Shown here piece after piece: positions 8,396-61,115 of a stretch of DNA of 64,000 bases. This stretch comes from Minisyncoccota bacterium (lineage in GTDB: Bacteria; Patescibacteriota; Minisyncoccia; Phycocordibacterales; UBA9973), in assembly GCA_041657885.1 (NCBI GenBank), contig JBBABB010000001.1, positions 129,094 through 193,093 of the forward strand, read 5' to 3'. The notes below the pieces were generated by a model that saw only the letters and a program-made list of their open reading frames with translations, was not told the DNA's origin and did not search any database. Numbering within the stretch: the first letter of the stretch is position 1; every line of letters begins with the position of its first letter. A program made the position numbers and the translations under genes.

Positions 8396-8469
8396 ATTTT
8401 ATCACATAAATAGTATTGACAGGATAGGAAAATATGTGTTGTGTTGAGGTGAATTAAATATATTGTATG

Positions 8470-8587
8470 AGCCAGAGTCTGGAATAGTCCTCTCAGAGGG
8501 TACGAAAATTTTTTGCTAAAAATTTTCTCGGTTCTCGCGCCGTCGCGCTCCAAAGCCCCTCTGATAGGACTATTCCAGACTCTGGCT
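8470..8587. repeat. MITE-like structured repeat (family A, copy 1) with about 30-bp terminal inverted repeats
   Basis: agccagagtctggaatagtcctctcagaggg ... cccctctgataggactattccagactctggct. Internal hairpins (aaaattttttgctaaaaatttt; gcgccgtcgcgc). Shares its core with 25990..26084, 27088..27184 and 61021..61115. Confidence 0.7.
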
Positions 8588-10325: not shown

Positions 10326-10490
10326 AATAATTTGTTGCTAGGTCTTGCCTAGCAAATAAAAAAACCGCATCTTGCGGCGCAGTTGAAGATCTTTTTGTTT
10401 CTATAAACTAAACACAAAAAGGGTTAACCTTCAAACCGAGCTTATAACAGGTTTAATATATCACAAAAGGGAATATCTTGCAAGCCAGTT

Positions 10491-10515
10491 CAGATAGGGG
10501 CTTAGCCCCTATCTG
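10491..10515. repeat. REP-like 25-bp perfect palindrome cagataggggcttagcccctatctg (copy 1, upstream of RAYT)
   Basis: Perfect inverted repeat. Copies at 10731..10755 and 11236..11260. Confidence 0.8.
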
Positions 10516-10544: not shown

Positions 10545-11249
10545 ATGAGCATAAGAAAACAACCTTTAGTAACAGGGGAAATGTATCATATTTACAATCG
10601 CGGGGTAGACAAGCGAGATATTTTTTCAGATAAAAATGACATTTATCGTTTTATTGAAAGTATTAAAGAATTTAATAGAATAGAAAAAATAGACAGTCTT
10701 GCAAATCTAAGAAAAATAAAATCAAATTCTCAGATAGGGGCTAAGCCCCTATCTGAAGGACCGTTAGTAGAGATTATAGGATATTGCCTTAATCCTAACC
10801 ACTTTCATTTTATATTAAGACAGTCAAATGATAATGGAATCACTAAATTTATGCATAAACTTCTAGGGGGATATACATCTTATTTTAATATTAAAAATTC
10901 TAGATCAGGGTCTCTATTTCAAGGAACTTTTAAATCACAAACTATAACTAATGAAGATTATTTTAATAAGTTAATAGGTTATGTTAACAAAAACTATCAA
11001 ATTCACAGTATTCCAGAAAATAAAAATGATTTAGTTTTTTCGGGGGATTATGAATATGAAAATAATAAATTCAATATTATTTCTAAAAAAGAAGGGGAAA
11101 ATATTTTAGAGGTTTTTGGAGGTGTAAAAAAATTTAAAAAACATTGTGATGAAATAGTTTCTATTGTTAGAGAGGAAAGAGGTAAAAAATCTTTACTTGA
11201 AGATGAAGATTTGAATGTAATTATAGAAAGTCTCCCAGATAGGGGCTAA
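10545..11249 (+). CDS. REP-associated tyrosine transposase (RAYT; IS200-like HuH-Y1 transposase, COG1943 family)
   Basis: MYHIYNRGVDKRDIF...NPNHFHFIL (HuH) ...GGYTSYFN...SGSLFQGTFKS...YVNKNYQ matches the Y1_Tnp/RayT pattern. Flanked by REP palindromes. TATAAT 6 nt upstream of the ATG. Confidence 0.8.
   Translation: MSIRKQPLVTGEMYHIYNRGVDKRDIFSDKNDIYRFIESIKEFNRIEKIDSLANLRKIKSNSQIGAKPLSEGPLVEIIGYCLNPNHFHFILRQSNDNGITKFMHKLLGGYTSYFNIKNSRSGSLFQGTFKSQTITNEDYFNKLIGYVNKNYQIHSIPENKNDLVFSGDYEYENNKFNIISKKEGENILEVFGGVKKFKKHCDEIVSIVREERGKKSLLEDEDLNVIIESLPDRG
10731..10755. repeat. REP palindrome copy 2, in frame inside the RAYT ORF (encodes QIGAKPLSE)
   Basis: Same 25-mer (one central base differs), codon-aligned. 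Confidence 0.8.
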
Positions 11250-11260
11250 GCCCCTATCTG
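11236..11260. repeat. REP palindrome copy 3, overlapping the RAYT stop codon (TAA in the palindrome loop)
   Basis: Same 25-mer; the stop codon 11247..11249 lies in its centre. Confidence 0.8.
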
Positions 11261-25989: not shown

Positions 25990-26084
25990 AAATAGTCTTA
26001 TCAAAGGGGCTTTGGAGCGCGTCGGCGCGAGAACTGAGCAAATTTTTAGCAAAAAATTTGAGTACCCTTTGAGAAGAGCTATTT
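25990..26084. repeat. MITE-like repeat family A, copy 2 (inverted orientation)
   Basis: Reverse complement matches the core of 8470..8587; sits between convergent genes. Confidence 0.7.
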
Positions 26085-27029: not shown

Positions 27030-27087
27030 AGTAGTTATTTTATACTAAAAAATCAAAAATTCATAATAAAAAAATAGGGTCGTCCAT

Positions 27088-27184
27088 AAAATAGCTCTTC
27101 TCAAAGGGTACGCAAATTTTTTACTAAAAATTTGCTCGGTTCTCGCTCCGTCGAGCTCCAAAGCCCCTTTGATAAGACTATTTT
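27088..27184. repeat. MITE-like repeat family A, copy 3
   Basis: aaaatagctcttctcaaagggtac...ctcgctccgtcgagctccaaagcccctttgataagactatttt. Confidence 0.7.
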
Positions 27185-37230: not shown

Positions 37231-37347
37231 AATTACAACACAAATTAAAATTTTAGTAGTCGGACTACTAAAATTTATTATTTTACATTTTAAAAAATAT
37301 ATGATATACTACTAATACATTTGAACGCCTTTTGGCGATTTTATTTT

Positions 37348-39219
37348 ATGGAAATTAGAAATATAGCAATAATCGCCCACGTGGACCATGGAAAAACCAC
37401 TTTGACTGACCAGATGATGAAGCAATGCGGAATGGTGAAAGAAGGGGTTACCATGGATTCAAACGCTCTTGAACTTGAGCGTGGTATTACTATATATTCC
37501 AAAAACACTTCAGTAATTTATAAAGGAAAAAAAATAAATATTGTAGATACTCCAGGCCACGCGGACTTCGGTTCTGAAGTTGAGCGTGTTCTTCGCGCGA
37601 TTGATTCTGTGCTTCTACTTGTAGATGCGCAAGAAGGTCCAATGCCTCAAACTCGCTTTGTTTTGAAAAAGTCCCTTGAGTTAGGACTTAAACCGATTGT
37701 TGTAATAAATAAAATAGATAAGCCAGCCTCAAACCCAGCTCGCGTTCATGATGAGATACTTGAACTTTTCTTGGAGCTTGGAGCTACTCAAGAACAAATT
37801 GATTTCAAATATTTATACGCTATAAGTCGCCAAGGAATAGCAAAATTAAAACTTGAAGATGAATCCAAAGATTTAACTCCTTTATTTGATCTAATACTTT
37901 CTGAAGTTAAAGAAGCATCTGTCGATAAAAACGCTCCTTTTCGGGCGCAAGTTTTTAATCTTGGCTATGATAACTTTTTGGGGCGTTTGGCTATCGTTCG
38001 CGCTTATGCTGGGTCTATTAAAACTAGCTCTCAAATTATAGTAAAAGATACTGTTGGTAATTCTCGTAATGCTCGCATTTCTAAAATATTTACTTTCCAG
38101 GGGATAGATAGAAAAGAAGTAAGCGTATTAAATACTGGAGATATCGCTATTATCGCTGGAATTCCCGATGTCTATATTGGAGAAACAATTTGTGATGATA
38201 TAAATACGCAAGCTCTTCCCTCTATTGATATAGATGAACCAACAATTTCCTTAAATTTTTTAGTAAATGATTCTCCTTTTGCAGGTCGTGAAGGTAAGTA
38301 TGTGACGGGTAGACAAATAAGAGAGCGTCTCGAAAAAGAACTTGAAATGAACGTTGGTCTTCGAATCAACTTTGATGTTCCAGATGAAGAATTAGGAAAA
38401 GAAGCCCGCCCGAACGACGCAGTCGGGCAGGGATTTCTTGTCTACGGACGTGGTGAATTACATATTGCAGTACTACTAGAAAATATGCGTCGTGAAGGAT
38501 ATGAGCTCCAAGTTTCTCAGCCCCACGTAATTATAAAACCTGCCCGCCCTCACGAAAGTTCGGGAGCAGGCGGGGAAGAAAAAGTAACTATGTTGGAGCC
38601 GTATGAAGAAGCAACCATTGATGTCAGGAGTGAATTTTCTGGTTCAGTTATAGAAAAATTAACTGCGCGCCGAGGAATTATAACAAATATGCATGAGAAA
38701 GAAGGAATTGTTCGAATGTTGATAGAGATACCCACTCGAGGATTGCTCGGATATCGTGGACAATTTATTGTAGATACTAAAGGTGAAGGAATACTTGCTT
38801 CAAGATTTATTGGATTTAAAAATTATGCAGGAGAAATAAAAAAGCGAGATGTGGGGTCTATGACTTCAATGATTAATGGTAAAGTTGTTGCATTCTCACT
38901 TTGGACTCTACAAGAAAGAGGAACTCTGTATGTAGAGCATGGAGATGAAGTATATGAAGGAATGGTTATTGGAAATGTTATAAAAGGAGATGAATTGACG
39001 GTTAATCCAACAAAAGGGAAACAACTTTCCAATATGCGTTCTTCAGGCACTGATGAAGCAATCAATGTTAAGCCACCATATAAGTTGTCTATTGAGCGAG
39101 GACTTGAGGTTATGGCTGAAGATGAATATCTTGAAATTACACCCCAAAATACTCGCTTACGCAAGAAGCTTCTAACGGAACAAGACCGATCAAAATCAAA
39201 AACAGCTAAAAATAAGTGA
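37348..39219 (+). CDS. typA: Translational GTPase TypA/BipA, carrying a 12-aa in-frame insertion ([12 protein letters not shown])
   Basis: [35 protein letters not shown]. Insertion at 38539..38576 relative to E. coli/B. subtilis BipA. Confidence 0.9.
38539..38576. repeat. GC-rich palindromic element (family E) inserted in frame in typA
   Basis: cctgcccgccctcacgaaagttcgggagcaggcgggga; identical 38-mer at 43646..43683 in mnmA. Confidence 0.8.
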
Positions 39220-42684: not shown

Positions 42685-42742
42685 TCCGCCTTCGCATAAA
42701 ACTACGGCAAGACAAGTCCGCCAAAATTTTTACGAAAAAGAT

Positions 42743-44083
42743 ATGGTGATTAAAAATAATAAAACAGTATTTATTGGGGTTTCCCCGAATAGAAGAGTAC
42801 TTCCTACGGGGCAGGCAGGCGGAGTTAAGCCTACTGTTTTTGTTGGTGTTTCAGGAGGTGTTGACAGTTCGGTTTCCGCGGCCCTTTTAAAAGAGGCTAC
42901 ACCAAAAAATTTTAAAAAATTTTTTGGTCGCCCGACCCCGAAGGGGTTTAGAGGATACAATGTAGTTGGGGTTTTTATTCGTACTTGGACACCGGATTTT
43001 ATAGAATGTACTTGGAAAAATGAGCGTCGTGATGCTATGCGAGTATGTGCGCATCTTAATATTCCTTTTTTAGAATGTGATGCTGAAAAAGAATATAAAA
43101 AAAGTGTGGTAGATTATATGATTGAAGAATATAAAAAAGGTAATACTCCAAACCCCGATGTAATGTGTAATCGAGAAGTTAAATTTGGAGTGTTTTGGAA
43201 ATTTGCACAATCTCACGGGGCAGATTTTATTGCCACGGGGCACTATGCACGCAAATCTCCCCTCCTTGTGGAGGAGGGGGTAGGGGGTGGTGATCCAAAA
43301 GAATTACCACCTCGCCCTGCGGGCACTCCTCCTCGAAAAGGAGGAGAGGAAATGCATAAATTACTAAAAGGTATTGACTCATCCAAAGACCAAGTTTATT
43401 TTTTGTGGACTTTAACGCAGGAAGATTTGTCTCATATTTTATTTCCCATTGGACATTTAAAAAAGACAGAAGTTCGTAAACTTGCAAAGAAATATAATCT
43501 TCCAACTGCGACGAAAAAAGACAGTCAGGGTATTTGTTTTCTGGGGCTACTTGATATGAAGGATTTCTTGAGACACTATATTAAATCAGAAAAAGGGAAT
43601 GTTTTGCTTGCCCGTCACGATAGTGAATTAGGGAATGAAAAGGGACCTGCCCGCCCTCACGAAAGTTCGGGAGCAGGCGGGGAAATAATTGGAAATCATA
43701 ATGGCGCGGTATTTTTCACTCTTGGAGAAAGACATGGATTTACTCTTAATAAACATTCCGAAAATGATGAACCTTTATATGTAATATCAAAAGATATAAA
43801 AAATAACACCATTACTGTTTCCCCTAGGCCTTGCCTAGGGGAAGAAGACGAACCACATAGGACCGTCCTATGTAATAATGCAAACTGGATTTCAGGTATA
43901 CCAGAAAAAGATAAGGTGTATATAGCTCAAATTCGTTATCATGGAGAGTTTTTAGATTGTAAAGTGGTCGTCACAGGTCAGACCTGTGAAATAACTTTTG
44001 ATAAAAATGTAATTGTTGATAAAGGACAATCAATAGTTATTTATGATGGGGATATTTGCCTAGGGGGTGGTGTGGTAATTTAA
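42743..44083 (+). CDS. mnmA: tRNA-specific 2-thiouridylase MnmA with at least 5 in-frame GC-rich insertions
   Basis: VGVSGGVDSSVSA (PP-loop), NPDVMCN, TGHYAR, KDQVYFL, QGICFLG. 446 aa versus about 360 aa for orthologs. Confidence 0.8.
   Translation: MVIKNNKTVFIGVSPNRRVLPTGQAGGVKPTVFVGVSGGVDSSVSAALLKEATPKNFKKFFGRPTPKGFRGYNVVGVFIRTWTPDFIECTWKNERRDAMRVCAHLNIPFLECDAEKEYKKSVVDYMIEEYKKGNTPNPDVMCNREVKFGVFWKFAQSHGADFIATGHYARKSPLLVEEGVGGGDPKELPPRPAGTPPRKGGEEMHKLLKGIDSSKDQVYFLWTLTQEDLSHILFPIGHLKKTEVRKLAKKYNLPTATKKDSQGICFLGLLDMKDFLRHYIKSEKGNVLLARHDSELGNEKGPARPHESSGAGGEIIGNHNGAVFFTLGERHGFTLNKHSENDEPLYVISKDIKNNTITVSPRPCLGEEDEPHRTVLCNNANWISGIPEKDKVYIAQIRYHGEFLDCKVVVTGQTCEITFDKNVIVDKGQSIVIYDGDICLGGGVVI
43646..43683. 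repeat. Family E element, identical copy inserted in frame in mnmA
   Basis: The same 38-mer as in typA. Confidence 0.8.
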
Positions 44084-52852: not shown

Positions 52853-53314
52853 ATGGAAAAAAAAGCAACAAAAACAACAAAACCTGCCCGCAGTGCTTCG
52901 AGCACAGCTCGTGCAGGCGGGGAAAAGAAATATGTTAGAGCTATTGGTCGTCGTAAGACAGCTGTAGCCGTTGTTCGTCTTTATAAAGCAACAAAAAATT
53001 CATATTCTATAAATGGAAAAGATTTAACCGAATATTTTAAAACAGCTGACTTGAAAAAGATTGTAACTTCTGCATTTGAAACAGCCGTACCAGTAGGGAA
53101 ATTTGAAGTTGTTGTCACAACCAAAGGTGGTGGAATTCATTCACAAGCTGAAGCGGTTCGCCATGGTATATCCCGCGCATTAGTATTACATGATGGAGAA
53201 CTTCGTCATGTTCTTAAGAAAGCCAAAATGCTTAAACGTGACCCTCGTCAAGTTGAACGTAAAAAATTCGGGCTCAAGAAAGCAAGAAAGTCACCGCAGT
53301 GGTCTAAACGATAA
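52853..53314 (+). CDS. rpsI: 30S ribosomal protein S9 with N-terminal extension containing a family-E-like element
   Basis: YVRAIGRRKTAVAVVRL...GGGIHSQAEAVRHGISRAL...ERKK.GLKKARK..QWSKR. Extension encodes KPARSASSTARAGGEKK. Confidence 0.9.
   Translation: MEKKATKTTKPARSASSTARAGGEKKYVRAIGRRKTAVAVVRLYKATKNSYSINGKDLTEYFKTADLKKIVTSAFETAVPVGKFEVVVTTKGGGIHSQAEAVRHGISRALVLHDGELRHVLKKAKMLKRDPRQVERKKFGLKKARKSPQWSKR
52883..52923. repeat. Family E variant element (shared termini cctgcccgc ... caggcgggga, different palindromic core) in frame in rpsI 5' end
   Basis: Termini identical to the typA/mnmA element; core gtgcttcgagcac is a palindrome. Confidence 0.65.
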
Positions 53315-53735: not shown

Positions 53736-54368
53736 ATGGATGAAGAAGAAATATCCGCCTCCGCTAAAAGCTACGGCGAGACAAAGGAAAATAAAATTGC
53801 AAATGAAGAAGATGAAACTGGTGAGAATTTTATTGACCTTGATGTTGTTGAGAGTACTGAAGATGGGGAAGAATTACCAGTGAAGGATGTCACAAAAAAA
53901 CTTCGCCAAGAAATAAAGAAACTCCAAAAAGAAAAAGAGGAATATTTGACTGGTTGGCAGAGAGCAAAAGCTGACTATATCAACCTCCAGAAAGAGCTCG
54001 ACCTCGTTCGGGTTAATGTTTCAATTTTAACGAGAGAAAAAATGACAGAAAAATTATTGCCTACCCTTGATAGTTTTGAGATGGCTTTCGCCAATAAAGA
54101 ACACTGGGAGAAAATAGATAAAGATTGGCAAGATGGAATTACTTCTATTTATCAGCAATTTATATCAGGGCTAGCCAATTCTGGAATTGAAAAAATAGAA
54201 GAGGCAGAAATTCCATTTGACCCAAATATTCACCAGTCAATAAGCGTGACTGAGACTAATGATGAATCAAAAAATCACACCGTAGAAAAAATACTCCAAG
54301 TTGGGTACAAAATAGGCGAGCGTGTTATCCGCCCAGCGAAAGTAACAATTTACGATTATAAGAAATAA
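53736..54368 (+). CDS. grpE: Nucleotide exchange factor GrpE
   Basis: C-terminal ...IEEAEIPFDPNIHQSISV...GYKIGERVIRPAKV matches GrpE. ATG at 53736 (TGTATACT 9 nt upstream); the ORF track starts at a TTG. Confidence 0.8.
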   Translation: MDEEEISASAKSYGETKENKIANEEDETGENFIDLDVVESTEDGEELPVKDVTKKLRQEIKKLQKEKEEYLTGWQRAKADYINLQKELDLVRVNVSILTREKMTEKLLPTLDSFEMAFANKEHWEKIDKDWQDGITSIYQQFISGLANSGIEKIEEAEIPFDPNIHQSISVTETNDESKNHTVEKILQVGYKIGERVIRPAKVTIYDYKK

Positions 54369-54370
54369 TA

Positions 54371-54455
54371 GTCGTTCCGCAGGATTATTAAAATTATTCG
54401 CGTTTTACCCAGAGTACTGGGTCCTACGCGACTCATAATTTAAACAATCCTGCTT
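54371..54455. repeat. About 90-bp multi-stem structured repeat (family D, copy 1) 3' of grpE
   Basis: gtcgttccgcaggattattaaaattattcgcgttttacccagagtactgggtcctacgcgactc...aatcctgc; near-identical copy at 57162..57248. Confidence 0.7.
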
Positions 54456-55007: not shown

Positions 55008-55219
55008 GTTGACAATTATATCACTATAATATATATTACACAATAATTTCGTGGTCACGAAATACTTGTCAAAAATAAAAGATGAGTATATAATTGGTTT
55101 AGATTCTCCTCTTGAGGAGTACCCGTAGGGGGAGGTGGAGTATTCAAATGCATCCACCCCGGCTTTCAGCCACCCCTCAAGAGGGGAATTAATACAAAAT
55201 TATTAATAATTAAAAATAG

Positions 55220-55251
55220 CCGCCTACGCTTGAAGCTATGGCGAGCCAAAG
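55220..55251 (+). promoter_or_regulatory. Conserved 32-nt GC-rich motif ccgcctacgcttgaagctatggcgagccaaag 8 nt upstream of dnaK (copies at 53753..53784 in grpE 5' end and 42686..42716 upstream of mnmA)
   Basis: Three-way alignment conserved at nucleotide level in different reading frames or none. Confidence 0.5.
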
Positions 55252-55259
55252 AAAAATAT

Positions 55260-57161
55260 ATGGCAAAAATCATAGGTATAGATTTGGGTACAACAAATAG
55301 TGCGGTCGCAATAATTGAAGGTGGACAACCAAAAATTATAGAAAATATAGAAGGTGGTCGTACAACACCATCAGTAGTTGCTATTACCAAGAATGGTGAT
55401 CGAATGGTAGGACTTTTAGCAAAACGCCAAGCAGTCACAAATCCAGAAAATACTGTTTATGGGATTAAAAGATTTGTTGGTCATTTATATGATGACCCAG
55501 AAATAAAAAAAGATGAAAAAACTATTCCGTATAAAATTCAAAAAGGTTCAACTGGAGGTGTGGAAGTAAAAATGGGTGATCAATGGTTTCGTCCAGAAGA
55601 AATTTCAGCAAAAATTTTAGGAAAAATAAAAGCCGATGTTGAAGCAAAGCTCGGAGAGAAAATTACAGAAGCAGTTATCACTGTTCCTGCTTATTTTAAT
55701 GATGCTCAAAGAAAAGCAACCAAAGATGCTGGAATTATTGCCGGGCTGAGTGTTATGCGTATTATCAATGAACCTACTGCTGCCGCTCTTGCTTACGGGT
55801 TTAATAATAAAAAAAATGAAAAAATAGCTGTGTACGACTTTGGAGGTGGAACTTTTGATATTTCTGTTCTTGAAGTTGGAGATGATGTTATTGAAGTGAA
55901 ATCTACTGATGGCGACTCGCACATGGGTGGTGAAGATATTGACCAGAAAGTTGTAAAATGGATTGCTGATGAATATAAAAAAGAATCAGGTATTGATGTT
56001 ACAAAAGATATGCTTGCTCTACAGAGATTGAAAGAGGCGGCAGAAAAGACAAAGCATGAACTTTCCACAACCATGGAATCAGAAATAAATATTCCATTTA
56101 TTACTTCAGACGCCTCAGGTCCTAAGCATTTACTTTTGAAAATGACTAGAGCAACTCTTGAATCATTAGCCGAAGAATATATCACTCGCTCAATCGAAAT
56201 AACTAAAAGGGCATTTGAAGCTTCGCCATTTAAGATGAATGAAATTAATGAACTAATTCTTGTTGGCGGACAAACCAGAATGCCAGCTATATACGAAGCT
56301 GTTAAGAAATTGTTTGGACGTGAACCAAATCGTTCAATCAATCCAGATGAAGTTGTCGCACTCGGTGCTGCAGTTCAAGCAGGGGTTCTTCAAGGAGATG
56401 TTCGTGACGTTCTACTTCTTGATGTTATTCCATTATCTCTTGGAATTGAAACGTTAGGTGGAGTTGCTACTAAATTAGTTGACCGCAATACCACTATTCC
56501 AAGCTCAAAATCGCAAACATTTTCTACTGCGGCCGATAATCAAACATCTGTAGAAATTCATATTACTCAAGGTGAACGCCCAATGGCCTCTGATAACAAA
56601 TCTCTTGGAAGATTTATATTAGATGGAATTCCTCCAGCACCACGTGGCATGCCTCAAATTGAAGTTACTTTTGATGTAGATGCCAATGGAATACTTAATG
56701 TTAAGGCGAAAGATAAGGCCTCTGGCAAAGAACAATCTATTCGTATTGAAGCAAGTTCAGGGCTTACTGAAGCAGATATAAAGAAAATGCGTGATGAAGC
56801 GGAAGCACATGCTGGAGAGGACTTAAAGAAAAAAGAATTGGCAGATGAGAAAAATACAGCTGAGATGATAATCTTTACAGCCGAGAAATCATTAAAAGAA
56901 TATGGTGATAAAGTTCCAGCAGAAACAAAAACATTAATTGAAGAAAAGTTAGGAGCTGTTAGAACTGCAAAAGAAGGGTCTGATATAGGAGCAATCAAAA
57001 CTGCTATTGAAAACTTAACGACAGAACTTTCTAAAATTGGTGAAATAATGAATAAAGCAAATCAAGAAGCAAGTGCAAATGCAAATCAAAATCCAACCCC
57101 AGAAGAAAAAGGGGAAGAAATAAAAGATGCGGAAGTAAAAGAAGGGGAACAAAATAAATAG
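55260..57161 (+). CDS. dnaK: Chaperone DnaK (Hsp70)
   Basis: [40 protein letters not shown]-like C-terminus. Confidence 0.95.
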
Positions 57162-57248
57162 AGTCGTTTCGCAGGATTATTAAAATTATTCGCGCTTTAC
57201 CCAGAGTACTGGGGCCTACGCGACTCATAATTTCAACAAATCCTGCTC
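57162..57248. repeat. Family D structured repeat copy 2, between dnaK and dnaJ
   Basis: About 90% identical to 54371..54455. Confidence 0.7.
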
Positions 57249-59895: not shown

Positions 59896-59972
59896 ATAAT
59901 TAATAATTAATAATTAATAATTAATAATTAATAATTAATAATTAATAATTAATAATTAATAATTAATAATTA
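59896..59972. repeat. Heptanucleotide microsatellite (ataatta)x11 in the intergenic region
   Basis: Perfect tandem 7-mer repeats. Confidence 0.9.
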
Positions 59973-59998
59973 AGAATTAAAGCGAAACAAATTATTTT

Positions 59999-61015
59999 AT
60001 GAATACAAATTTAAACACATTAGAATTTATTCTAAAAAATTATAAGAACTTCAATGCTCGCGCAACGAAAGACGCGATGATTTCATATTGGCGTCATATT
60101 GAAAAAGGAGGCAAAATGTTTTGGGCTATGGGAGGAGCCATGTCTTCAGCTCAGCTTGGGATTACTCTTGCTCCAGCAATCAGGAATGGATTAATTTCAG
60201 GAATGTCTGTGACTGGGGCTAACCTTGAGGAGTCATTGTTCCGTCTCGTTGCCCACAAGAGCTACAAAGACTTTCCTGATTATAGATATTTTACAAAAGA
60301 AGATGATACAAAGATTTTAGAAGACCGTATGCGACGTGTGACAGATACAAGTATTCCTGAAGACGAAGCATTTCGTGTTGTTGAAAAACAAATTGTTCCT
60401 ACATGGAAAAAAGCTACAGTAGATGGGACAAGAAAATTTTGGCATGAATACTTTTATGAACTTATCCAATCAATTGATAAGAGTAAACACGAAGGAAGAG
60501 CAGATGAATGTTGGTTGCTTGCTGCAGCAGAGAAAAATATTCCAATAGTGGTACCTGGTTATGAGGACTCAACATTTGGAAATATTTTTGCTTCTTATGT
60601 AAAGACCGGTGAATGTAGTGCAAATATTGCTAAATCGGGTGTTGAATACATGGTGGCATGGTACGATCAGTATCAAGATTTGTCTAAGGATAAAGGAGTT
60701 GGACTTTTTCAAATTGGTGGAGGAATTGCGGGTGATTTTCCAATTTGTGTTGTTCCTTCTATAAAATATGATTTAAAAAAAGAAGTAAAACCATGGGCTT
60801 ATTTCTGCCAGATTTCAGATTCTACAACTTCTTATGGTTCATATTCCGGAGCAACCCCAAATGAAAAAATTACTTGGGATAAGCTTACGAAAGACACTCC
60901 GATGTTCGTCATTGAATCAGATGCTACTATTGTTGCCCCACTTATACTTACGGCACTTCTTGAGTGTAAAGCAAATCCAGGTGGAGCTAATAAATTAATA
61001 GAACAAATGGGTTAG
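59999..61015 (+). CDS. Deoxyhypusine synthase-like protein (possible homospermidine synthase)
   Basis: FWAMGGAMSSAQLG...GMSVTGANLEESLF resembles the DHS family. Confidence 0.55.
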   Translation: MNTNLNTLEFILKNYKNFNARATKDAMISYWRHIEKGGKMFWAMGGAMSSAQLGITLAPAIRNGLISGMSVTGANLEESLFRLVAHKSYKDFPDYRYFTKEDDTKILEDRMRRVTDTSIPEDEAFRVVEKQIVPTWKKATVDGTRKFWHEYFYELIQSIDKSKHEGRADECWLLAAAEKNIPIVVPGYEDSTFGNIFASYVKTGECSANIAKSGVEYMVAWYDQYQDLSKDKGVGLFQIGGGIAGDFPICVVPSIKYDLKKEVKPWAYFCQISDSTTSYGSYSGATPNEKITWDKLTKDTPMFVIESDATIVAPLILTALLECKANPGGANKLIEQMG

Positions 61016-61020
61016 GTTTG

Positions 61021-61115
61021 AAATAGCTTTTCTCAGAGGGTACACCAATTTCTTGGTAGAAATTCGTTCAGTGTTCGCTCCGTCGAGCTCACAAGCCCCT
61101 CTGATAAAACTATTT
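61021..61115. repeat. MITE-like repeat family A, copy 4
   Basis: aaatagcttttctcagagggtac...gctccgtcgagctcacaagcccctctgataaaactattt. Confidence 0.7.

Follow-up and report, generated by a model that had tools for sequence, protein, structure and literature searches.

Introduction

The GC clusters of yeast mitochondrial DNA are mobile, GC-rich palindromic sequences in a very AT-rich genome, and some of them lie in frame within coding sequence (var1). Rickettsia palindromic elements (RPEs) were reportedly the subject of studies by Ogata et al. in 2000 and 2002. In-frame insertion of RPE-1 to RPE-10 in coding genes is documented (PMC10969869), and intragenic repetitive extragenic palindromes (REPs) have been noted in several species (Di Nocera et al. 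2013, PMC3733652). Here we describe mnmA, the gene for tRNA 2-thiouridine(34) synthase, in a 64,000-nucleotide stretch (the window) of contig JBBABB010000001.1 from a Minisyncoccota bacterium. An earlier note on this DNA had read mnmA as an intact, probably functional mosaic of mostly palindromic in-frame insertions; this reading held, with inserts that are patchy among orthologues, conserved as DNA and, for two insert types, dispersed, in a gene whose core is kept. We consider it likely that mnmA has been colonised at permissive loops by several unrelated families of GC-rich hairpin elements similar to RPEs or intragenic REPs. In-frame palindromic elements are a known kind and are apparently new here for the candidate phyla radiation (CPR); a full-text search of the literature, the coverage of which is incomplete, revealed no report of such elements in CPR/Patescibacteria.

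The mnmA elements resemble RPEs in several respects: the palindromes are small and lie in frame in housekeeping genes that are unrelated to one another, the host genome is reduced and AT-rich, a single frame is kept free of stops, the extra loops appear to be tolerated and the distribution among relatives is patchy. They differ from RPEs, with which they were compared by description, in the host phylum (Patescibacteria), in their length (36 to ~100 nt versus ~100-150 nt), in being markedly GC-rich relative to the genome, in the presence of several unrelated families in one gene and in the absence of CGTC at the element ends.

Results

In-frame insertions in mnmA

The mnmA coding sequence is an uninterrupted open reading frame (ORF) of 446 aa, and the shortest close orthologues are 352-353 aa long. 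Insert borders were set by codon alignment against the insert-free orthologue L002 (352 aa) and the partly filled orthologues L001 and L003. This analysis resolved the 94-aa excess (446 - 352) into five discrete in-frame blocks of 23, 18, 32, 9 and 12 aa, here named ins1, ins2, ins3, ins4a and ins4b (Table 1). The GC content of the inserts was 0.41-0.72, compared with 0.348 in the remaining mnmA sequence; that of the window was 34%. Folding of the single-stranded DNA gave z-scores versus shuffled sequences of -1.95 for ins1, -4.35 for ins2, -4.62 for ins3 and -2.45 for the 38-mer of ins4b, while ins4a (z -0.31) folded no better than its shuffles. Four of the five inserts are GC-rich and hairpin-forming (ins1 less clearly), with ins4a as the exception. 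The window contains 21 perfect hairpins with a stem of at least 9 bp, where first-order Markov simulations gave 3.3 +/- 2.2, and 4 of the 21 were inside mnmA, which occupies 2% of the window (binomial P = 9e-4).

The earlier note had assigned the extra length to GC-rich palindromic blocks. This was correct for four of its five listed items, which were present essentially as placed, except that the first block begins ~7 nt earlier, with a GC-rich hairpin core at 42783..42832; the fifth insertion, ins4a, was not among the items of the note and is not palindromic. It is absent from L001-L003, L245 and L246 and occurs as variants in other orthologues. A duplicated lead-in had also been described at ins1, and this insert is indeed flanked by an imperfect 20-nt direct repeat (42764..42783 and 42833..42852, 16/20 identical), of which insert-free orthologues hold one copy only; it is at most a putative target-site duplication. 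The inverted arms of ins3 (43257-43277 and 43328-43348) are 21 nt long and 86% complementary. The insert peptides include ELPPRPAGTPPR and NFKKFFGRPTPK.

Table 1. Coordinates of mnmA, its insertions and palindromes, and related features in the window
Feature	Coordinates	Strand	Description
mnmA	42743..44083	+	ORF; Pfam PF03054, PF20259, PF20258; matches to Protein Data Bank (PDB) sequences and of the AlphaFold2 (AF2) model
ins1	42770..42838	+	69 nt, 23 aa VFIGVSPNRRVLPTGQAGGVKPT; hairpin core; absent in L001/L002, present in L003
ins2	42896..42949	+	54 nt, 18 aa ATPKNFKKFFGRPTPKGF; AT-rich 13-bp perfect palindrome and CCCCGAAGGGG hairpin
ins3	43259..43354	+	96 nt, 32 aa PLLVEEGVGGGDPKELPPRPAGTPPRKGGEEM; resembling transposable elements of the miniature inverted-repeat kind (MITEs), four hairpins, terminal inverted repeats
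ins4a	43607..43633	+	27 nt, 9 aa LARHDSELG; non-palindromic
ins4b	43646..43681	+	36 nt, 12 aa; '38-mer' hairpin element; clean insertion relative to orthologues
Palindrome 5a	43819..43843	+	TTCCCCTAGGC CTT GCCTAGGGGAA, perfect 11-bp stem; no net length gain
Palindrome 5b	43855..43873	+	ACATAGGAC C GTCCTATGT, 9 bp; encodes HRTVLC
Palindrome 6	43971..43989	+	TCACAGGTC A GACCTGTGA
Second identical 36-nt element	38539..38574	+	in frame in bipA, with an AAA codon on one side and a GAA codon on the other; bipA identified by Pfam
38-mer relative	52879..52921	+	CCTGCCCGC...GCAGGCGGG, other loop; in frame near the rpsI N-terminus; z -3.52
Diverged ins3 relative	55103..55190	.	non-coding, four-hairpin layout, z -4.34; between the PaaX-like gene and dnaK, upstream of the latter
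RAYT-like Y1 (HUH) transposase gene	10545..11249	+	Pfam Y1_Tnp; motifs YHIYNRG, NHFHFIL, GYVNKNY

Distribution and conservation of the inserts

Presence or absence of the inserts was scored in 120 orthologues (59-71% BLAST identity, 65-80% over aligned columns; 352-465 aa, median 388). We found ins1 in 6, ins2 in 10, ins3-type inserts in 9 and ins4b in 4 of them, and among close orthologues each insert was filled or empty at one site. The minimum number of insert state changes on the core-alignment tree, a weakly resolved tree built by the unweighted pair group method with arithmetic mean (UPGMA) from sequences 65-80% identical, was close to the random expectation. Site 3, directly after the TGHYAR motif, is a hotspot at which relatives carry at least three further, different inserts, each of them palindromic (folding z -3.45, -5.15 and -2.69).

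Alignment with close relatives thus revealed a patchy distribution, and it also revealed insert DNA that is better conserved than the surrounding gene. The ins3 DNA was 90/93 nt identical to that of L001 (96.8%), with identity at 31/31 third codon positions, compared with 76% overall and 57% at third positions in the gene core. Similarly, ins2 was 57/60 nt identical to its L003 counterpart (95%), compared with 75% in the gene core. Identity decayed within ~10 nt beyond the element, which argues against a long recombination tract. Judged by these sequence comparisons, the inserts behave as DNA elements and not as protein features.

We consider it very improbable that the extra segments are instead lineage-specific MnmA loops or domains kept by selection on the protein, for example for partner or tRNA binding, and not mobile DNA. 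Every insert keeps the frame, insertion sites are reused, ins1 and ins2 were found in MnmA only within 1.6 Mb of DNA searched, and ins2 is predicted to be ordered, with a short helix and high confidence, all of which such loops would explain. Set against this, most close orthologues lack the inserts yet hold all catalytic motifs, ins3 and ins4b occur in unrelated proteins, frame-shifted ins3 variants encode different peptides from conserved DNA, third positions are as invariant in ins3 as described above, and ins1, ins3 and ins4 are the sole low-confidence regions of the structural model. For ins2, a protein-level explanation may hold.

Dispersed copies of the element families

The earlier note had described the fourth block as a family E 38-mer, and ins4b was found to be identical over 40/40 nt to positions 38538..38577 in bipA. 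The 36-nt element in mnmA and bipA, and its relative with another loop in rpsI, are clean insertions between A-rich codons and are read PAR...AGG. We scanned one genome per species with the pattern CCTGCCCGC-N12-26-GCAGGCGGG. Among the 127 matches listed, 83 were at loci of at least 45% GC (chance or unrelated) and 44 were at low-GC loci. Most of the low-GC matches listed carried Patescibacteria-type names (Nomurabacteria, Saccharibacteria, Paceibacterota, Magasanikbacteria); the matches shared a recognisable consensus and had lengths mostly divisible by three. Long ORFs enclosed many of them, in either orientation and in various frames.

Metagenome contigs were scanned for the left end of ins3, and those of low GC gave at least 20 non-redundant full elements of ~100 nt (window copy included), several of which were intergenic. 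Among the matches listed, 11 of these copies lay in ORFs 240 aa or more in length, every time on the + strand and in phase 0. The host ORFs, on CPR-like contigs, whose gene names were read from the sequences and not by family scan, were FtsK (two contigs), TsaD, KsgA, PurD, MurB, PolA and a recurrent hypothetical protein, placing the family in at least about 8-10 gene families as well as in intergenic DNA. An exhaustive HMMER search with the ins3 peptide gave one significant representative, the unrelated 362-aa protein P0121, and the MnmA protein P0047 was found to hold the ins3 peptide twice.

Frame +0 was the sole usually stop-free frame of ins3 (17/20 copies), and two intergenic copies had stops in every frame. 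Since intragenic copies are stop-free and frame-preserving while these two intergenic copies are not free of stops in any frame, we argue that the inserts are read through. One open frame per element, as described for RPEs, was thus observed for the ins3 family (phase 0 only) and for the 38-mer in bipA, mnmA and rpsI. Length variants of ins3 (85, 86 and 88 nt) change reading frame part-way through, so that the peptide continues as ...HHLALKGTPPQKGG or ...ITTSPFGHSSSTRR. The consensus fold contains four hairpins, two of which have compensatory pairs. These comparisons indicate that ins3 conservation is nucleic and not peptide. The flanks of the ins3 copies were T-rich (...CT) on the 5' side and A-rich on the 3' side, and a consistent target-site duplication was found in none of 20 copies. 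With respect to copy number, raised earlier for each of the palindromes, ins3 and the 38-mer were multi-copy, and no additional copy of ins1 or ins2 was found in 1.6 Mb of DNA searched; the ins2, ins1 and ins4a peptides, joined into one 49-aa query, gave no candidate in a protein search.

Several other features of these families were observed. The S9 copy of the 38-mer relative (rpsI 52853..53314) is encoded as KPARSASSTARAGGE, and bipA (37321..39219) contains a second window-specific, GC-rich in-frame insertion with a hairpin (38392..38433, LGKEARPND..., z -2.9). The ins3 left hairpin, CCCCTCCTT-N4-AAGGAGGGG-N3-GGGGGTGGT, was present in >120 contigs of 28-69% GC (L124-L243, e.g. L131, L150, L153, L217, L222). 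Where such contigs are high in GC, the hairpin is intergenic and doubled, and a conserved tail (…TGTTGTAAAGAATTAGCCGGGACGCCACACTAGC) comes after it; L217 and L222 also carry Acido-Lenti-1 RNA. Some individual CPR genes have two elements, either different or opposed. The MurB-like ORF of L206 contains an ins3-type insert together with a 38-mer-type insert in which an extra segment (KPARPHDISASLPYGSRQGAGGE) is nested, and the FtsK-like ORF of L126 contains a full ins3-type copy and a second region of ins3-like peptide motifs (…RPPRPSGTPPQRGGEAPLLNKEG…).

Four other origins were examined and rejected. For viral carriage, the ins3 left end turned up in a single IMG/VR contig and ins2 did not turn up at all. 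For a DNA-uptake signal, a k-mer census of the window contained no hyper-abundant GC-rich motif. For a known RNA family, Rfam searches (gathering threshold for the window and 10 loci; permissive E-value for the gene) returned only tRNAs, and Acido-Lenti-1 elsewhere. For an intein, intron or bypass element, the inserts are 9-32 aa long and had no non-MnmA Pfam domain and no Rfam intron or ribozyme match.

Coding palindromes that add no length

Three further palindromes, 5a, 5b and 6, were identified in the 3' part of mnmA; 5b and 6 had not been listed in the earlier note. Palindrome 5a had been proposed as added length (43821..43841). It is a perfect palindrome and is not an insertion, because insert-free orthologues and S. 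pneumoniae MnmA are just as long over this stretch. It had also been related to palindromes at 10338 and 31661; only the core CTAGGYCTTGCCTAG is common to them. A search for CTAGGYCTTGCCTAG-type sequences with up to 2 mismatches gave one extra match against 0.02 expected, a suggestive but weak result.

The region that comprises 5a and 5b had a folding z of -6.1, and the HRTVLC motif of 5b was present in 23/120 orthologues. Both arms of 5a are altered in L244, L245 and L246 with pairing retained, and the same is true of palindrome 6 in L001/L002, where it reads TGCACAGGTCAGACCTGTGCA. At all three palindromes joint arm changes in orthologues keep the pairing, with amino acid changes as the cost.

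Such joint changes are predicted by template switching, and the palindromes might therefore have formed in place, by quasipalindrome template switch or replication slippage, with similar sequences arising by convergence and no transposition. The same idea would accommodate the lack of added length at 5a, 5b and 6, the 20-nt duplication at ins1, which looks more like slippage or duplication than a classical transposon target-site duplication, and the fact that no transposase partner is tied to the elements. It leaves unexplained the 40-nt identity between bipA and mnmA, the presence of a ~100-nt four-hairpin element of the same sequence in at least 10 gene families and in intergenic DNA, and insertions of 36 nt and 96 nt that are clean when compared with the empty sites of orthologues. 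Because two families show paralogous copies with identical non-palindromic loops, formation in place is limited to 5a, 5b and 6 and perhaps ins1, and as an explanation of the mosaic we regard it as quite unlikely.

The protein core of mnmA

The MnmA protein contains all three MnmA Pfam domains (Table 1), and the four motifs previously described as intact (SGGVDSS, NPDVMCN, TGHYAR and QGICFLG) were all found in the 446-aa ORF. The PP-loop SGGVDSS (residues 37-43) was invariant in 113 orthologues, and the other motifs were likewise invariant. The catalytic cysteines C142 and C265, which lie in the NPDxxCN and GICF motifs and are equivalent to E. coli C102/C199, were also invariant and align to 2hma/2der. 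The sequences of solved MnmA structures (2hma, 9hlv and 2der) matched at E ~1e-65; the match falls into three stretches, and the gaps between them coincide with the inserts. When core codon positions were compared with relatives, first and second positions were 86% identical and third positions 57%, a substitution pattern which indicates that the mnmA core is under purifying selection. The mnmA neighbourhood was syntenic in L001, L002, L003 and L244-L246.

An AlphaFold model built from a 113-sequence alignment had a predicted local distance difference test score (pLDDT) of 79.5 and a predicted template modelling score (pTM) of 0.79. It superposed on E. coli MnmA-tRNA complexes, with a template modelling (TM) score of 0.87 (target-normalised) and a root mean square deviation of 3.1 versus 2deu_A. 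Values of pLDDT below 50 were restricted to residues 1-25 (ins1), 175-201 (ins3) and 294-311 (ins4a/b), and ins2 was modelled as ordered (pLDDT 88-95), an appendage that includes a short helix. In this model three insert loops look disordered and ins2 may be structured. Taken together, the motifs, the three domains, the predicted MnmA fold and the selection on the core suggest that mnmA, an intact gene, is probably functional despite the insertions, in agreement with the earlier note.

Over its 446 aa the protein is 100% identical to one encoded on a 362-kb contig of a 'Candidatus Paceibacterota' metagenome-assembled genome (MAG). The window is itself MAG sequence, and repeats can give chimeric joins. 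There is nevertheless next to no chance that the mosaic reflects a metagenome assembly artefact or that mnmA is a pseudogene, given that each insert type recurs at the same position in independent ENA, JGI, NCBI and Logan assemblies and that the ORF is uninterrupted, with all domains present and a core that appears constrained.

A conserved TCCGCCTTCGCATAAAACTACGGCAAGACAAG motif was observed at 42685..42725, just 5' of mnmA, and in the orthologous place in L003 (8908..8939). Two more copies (53753..53784 and 55217..55249) are near predicted starts, inside ORFs as called (53718.. and dnaK). A promoter or leader role is possible for this motif, as is membership of a further repeat family.

A RAYT-like Y1 transposase gene in the window

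The window also contains a gene that resembles REP-associated tyrosine transposases (RAYTs). Its product matched Pfam Y1_Tnp with 29.5 bits (cut-off 23) and NCBIfam REP_Tyr_transpos with 27.7 bits, below the cut-off of 80. A 25-nt palindrome, CAGATAGGGGCTWAGCCCCTATCTG, is present three times at this gene: upstream (10491..10515), inside (10730..10756) and over the stop codon (11236..11260). The internal copy is in frame, encodes SQIGAKPLS and is kept in 12/12 aligned homologues. Of 2642 homologues of the protein, the best 120 were 68-88% identical to it; among these 120, those with a name belonged to Nomurabacteria or Paceibacterota, and some carry the JGI label RayT. The family is more conserved than MnmA. 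HUH/Y1 enzymes act on single-stranded hairpins, and for this reason the gene is a reasonable candidate mobiliser, by inference only.

The conservation of the RAYT-like protein, which is as high as expected of a domesticated gene, and of the palindrome inside its gene is also what would be expected if the hairpins were selected nucleic-acid signals (for mRNA stability or processing, pausing, binding of the RAYT-like protein, or uptake and recombination), with the peptide a tolerated by-product. Pairing that is kept by two-sided changes despite amino acid changes, and insert DNA conserved far over the synonymous expectation, point the same way. Most orthologues, however, lack the inserts and show no visible replacement, no single motif is over-represented as for an uptake signal, no Rfam family was matched, and selection could be mimicked by templated repair, by recent spread or by terminator-free hairpins variably placed with respect to gene ends. 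We judge a signal function of this kind unlikely.

Other repeats in the window

A ~120-nt intergenic repeat with a GC-rich core (…CTCGCGCCGTCGCGCTCCAAAGCCCCTCTGATAGG…) was present in four copies in the 64 kb (8456..8575, 27064..27183, 60996..61115 and, on the reverse strand, 25997..26044). A 78-nt direct repeat (54370..54447 and 57162..57239) is 95% identical between its copies and contains a GC-rich hairpin, TACCCAGAGTACTGGGT; the first copy lies ~0.8 kb 5' of the dnaK ORF (55230..57161), with a PaaX-like gene between, and the second directly 3' of dnaK. A tandem array at 59898..59980, between genes, has a 14-nt AT-only period (AATTAATAATTAAT).

Discussion

The mnmA elements share features with several known systems. 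With yeast GC clusters they have in common the setting described above, and differ from them in that those are organellar, unrelated in sequence and presumably mobilised differently. Features shared with REPs, REP doublets forming hairpins (REPINs) and their RAYTs are short, imperfect GC-rich palindromes, a palindrome-bracketed RAYT-like gene in the window, a palindrome overlapping the stop codon of the flanking ORF in both systems, and the intragenic copies of some species; differences are that no head-to-head doublets were seen and that the elements are mostly inside and not between genes. MITEs (Correia/NEMIS, ERIC and the in-frame-fusing Anabaena MITEs) are matched by ins3 in its terminal inverted repeats, its length of ~100 nt, its lack of coding capacity of its own and its multiple copies across genomes, both intergenic and intragenic. 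In contrast to MITEs, ins3 has four conserved internal hairpins, and neither a consistent target-site duplication nor a parent insertion sequence (IS) was found for it. GGGGWSAS, the terminal inverted repeat motif of TIRYT elements (PMC3733652), was not present in these elements.

We propose that non-autonomous, hairpin-rich DNAs of 36 to ~100 nt enter or spread at A/T-rich coding positions, and that selection would purge the copies that break the frame or sit in structured parts of the protein. The surviving copies would be stop-free, lie in permissive loops and be translated as extra peptide, because only in-frame, stop-free copies would survive inside genes. If gain, loss or spread at shared sites makes the elements turn over fast compared with the gene, this would account for both the patchy distribution among orthologues and the near-identical insert DNA. 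The most plausible means of mobilisation would be a single-strand HUH/Y1 transposase that recognises hairpins, such as the RAYT-like protein. Templated repair within the hairpin may keep the arms complementary, so that selection need not be invoked for arms that change together.

Several points weigh against colonisation by mobile elements. Translation of the inserts and their neutrality are inferred, and the predicted order of ins2 may mean that this insert is a selected protein feature rather than junk. Poor resolution of the orthologue tree may be part of the reason why the insert distribution appears random. No further copy of ins1, ins2 or ins4a was found in 1.6 Mb of DNA searched, so that mobility of these three is argued from patchiness and DNA conservation, and copies in the host genome were counted within the 64-kb window only, at 2-3 per family. 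Target-site duplications were absent or undetectable except around ins1, and neither an autonomous partner nor a parent IS was found whose ends match. The GTAG/CGTC tag of REPs is absent from the mnmA elements (the 38-mer starts with CCTGCCCGC, 5a with CTAGG and 5b with ATAGG). The palindrome CAGATAGGGGCTWAGCCCCTATCTG that flanks the RAYT-like gene differs from every mnmA element, the NCBIfam score of the gene is low for a RAYT, and a tblastn search with its product against ~245 loci revealed an element-adjacent homologue in L112 only.

Beyond this locus, REP/MITE-like hairpin elements may be found routinely inside essential genes across the Patescibacteria, be translated there, and be driven or curated by a domesticated RAYT-like Y1 transposase, with the hairpins kept by selection or by templated repair. 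We put this forward tentatively, as a doubtful extension of the colonisation of mnmA. If true, it would identify an overlooked major source of length variation and of 'CPR-specific insertions' in housekeeping proteins, and would offer a tractable natural system for protein loop insertion.

At mnmA itself, one 1.3-kb gene contains at least four element families, three coding palindromes and a shared insertion hotspot. In-frame palindromic selfish DNA has so far been a Rickettsia curiosity, accompanied by scattered intragenic REPs. The present data extend the phenomenon to the largest uncultured bacterial radiation, with families also in FtsK, PolA, MurB, TsaD, KsgA, BipA and S9. The combination of clean 36-100 nt elements, empty and filled sites and a conserved RAYT-like gene makes the entry of such elements into coding DNA experimentally approachable. 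The elements inflate and scramble the protein alignments on which CPR phylogeny and annotation are based, create spurious 'lineage-specific' loops, and mark permissive insertion sites in well-known enzymes.

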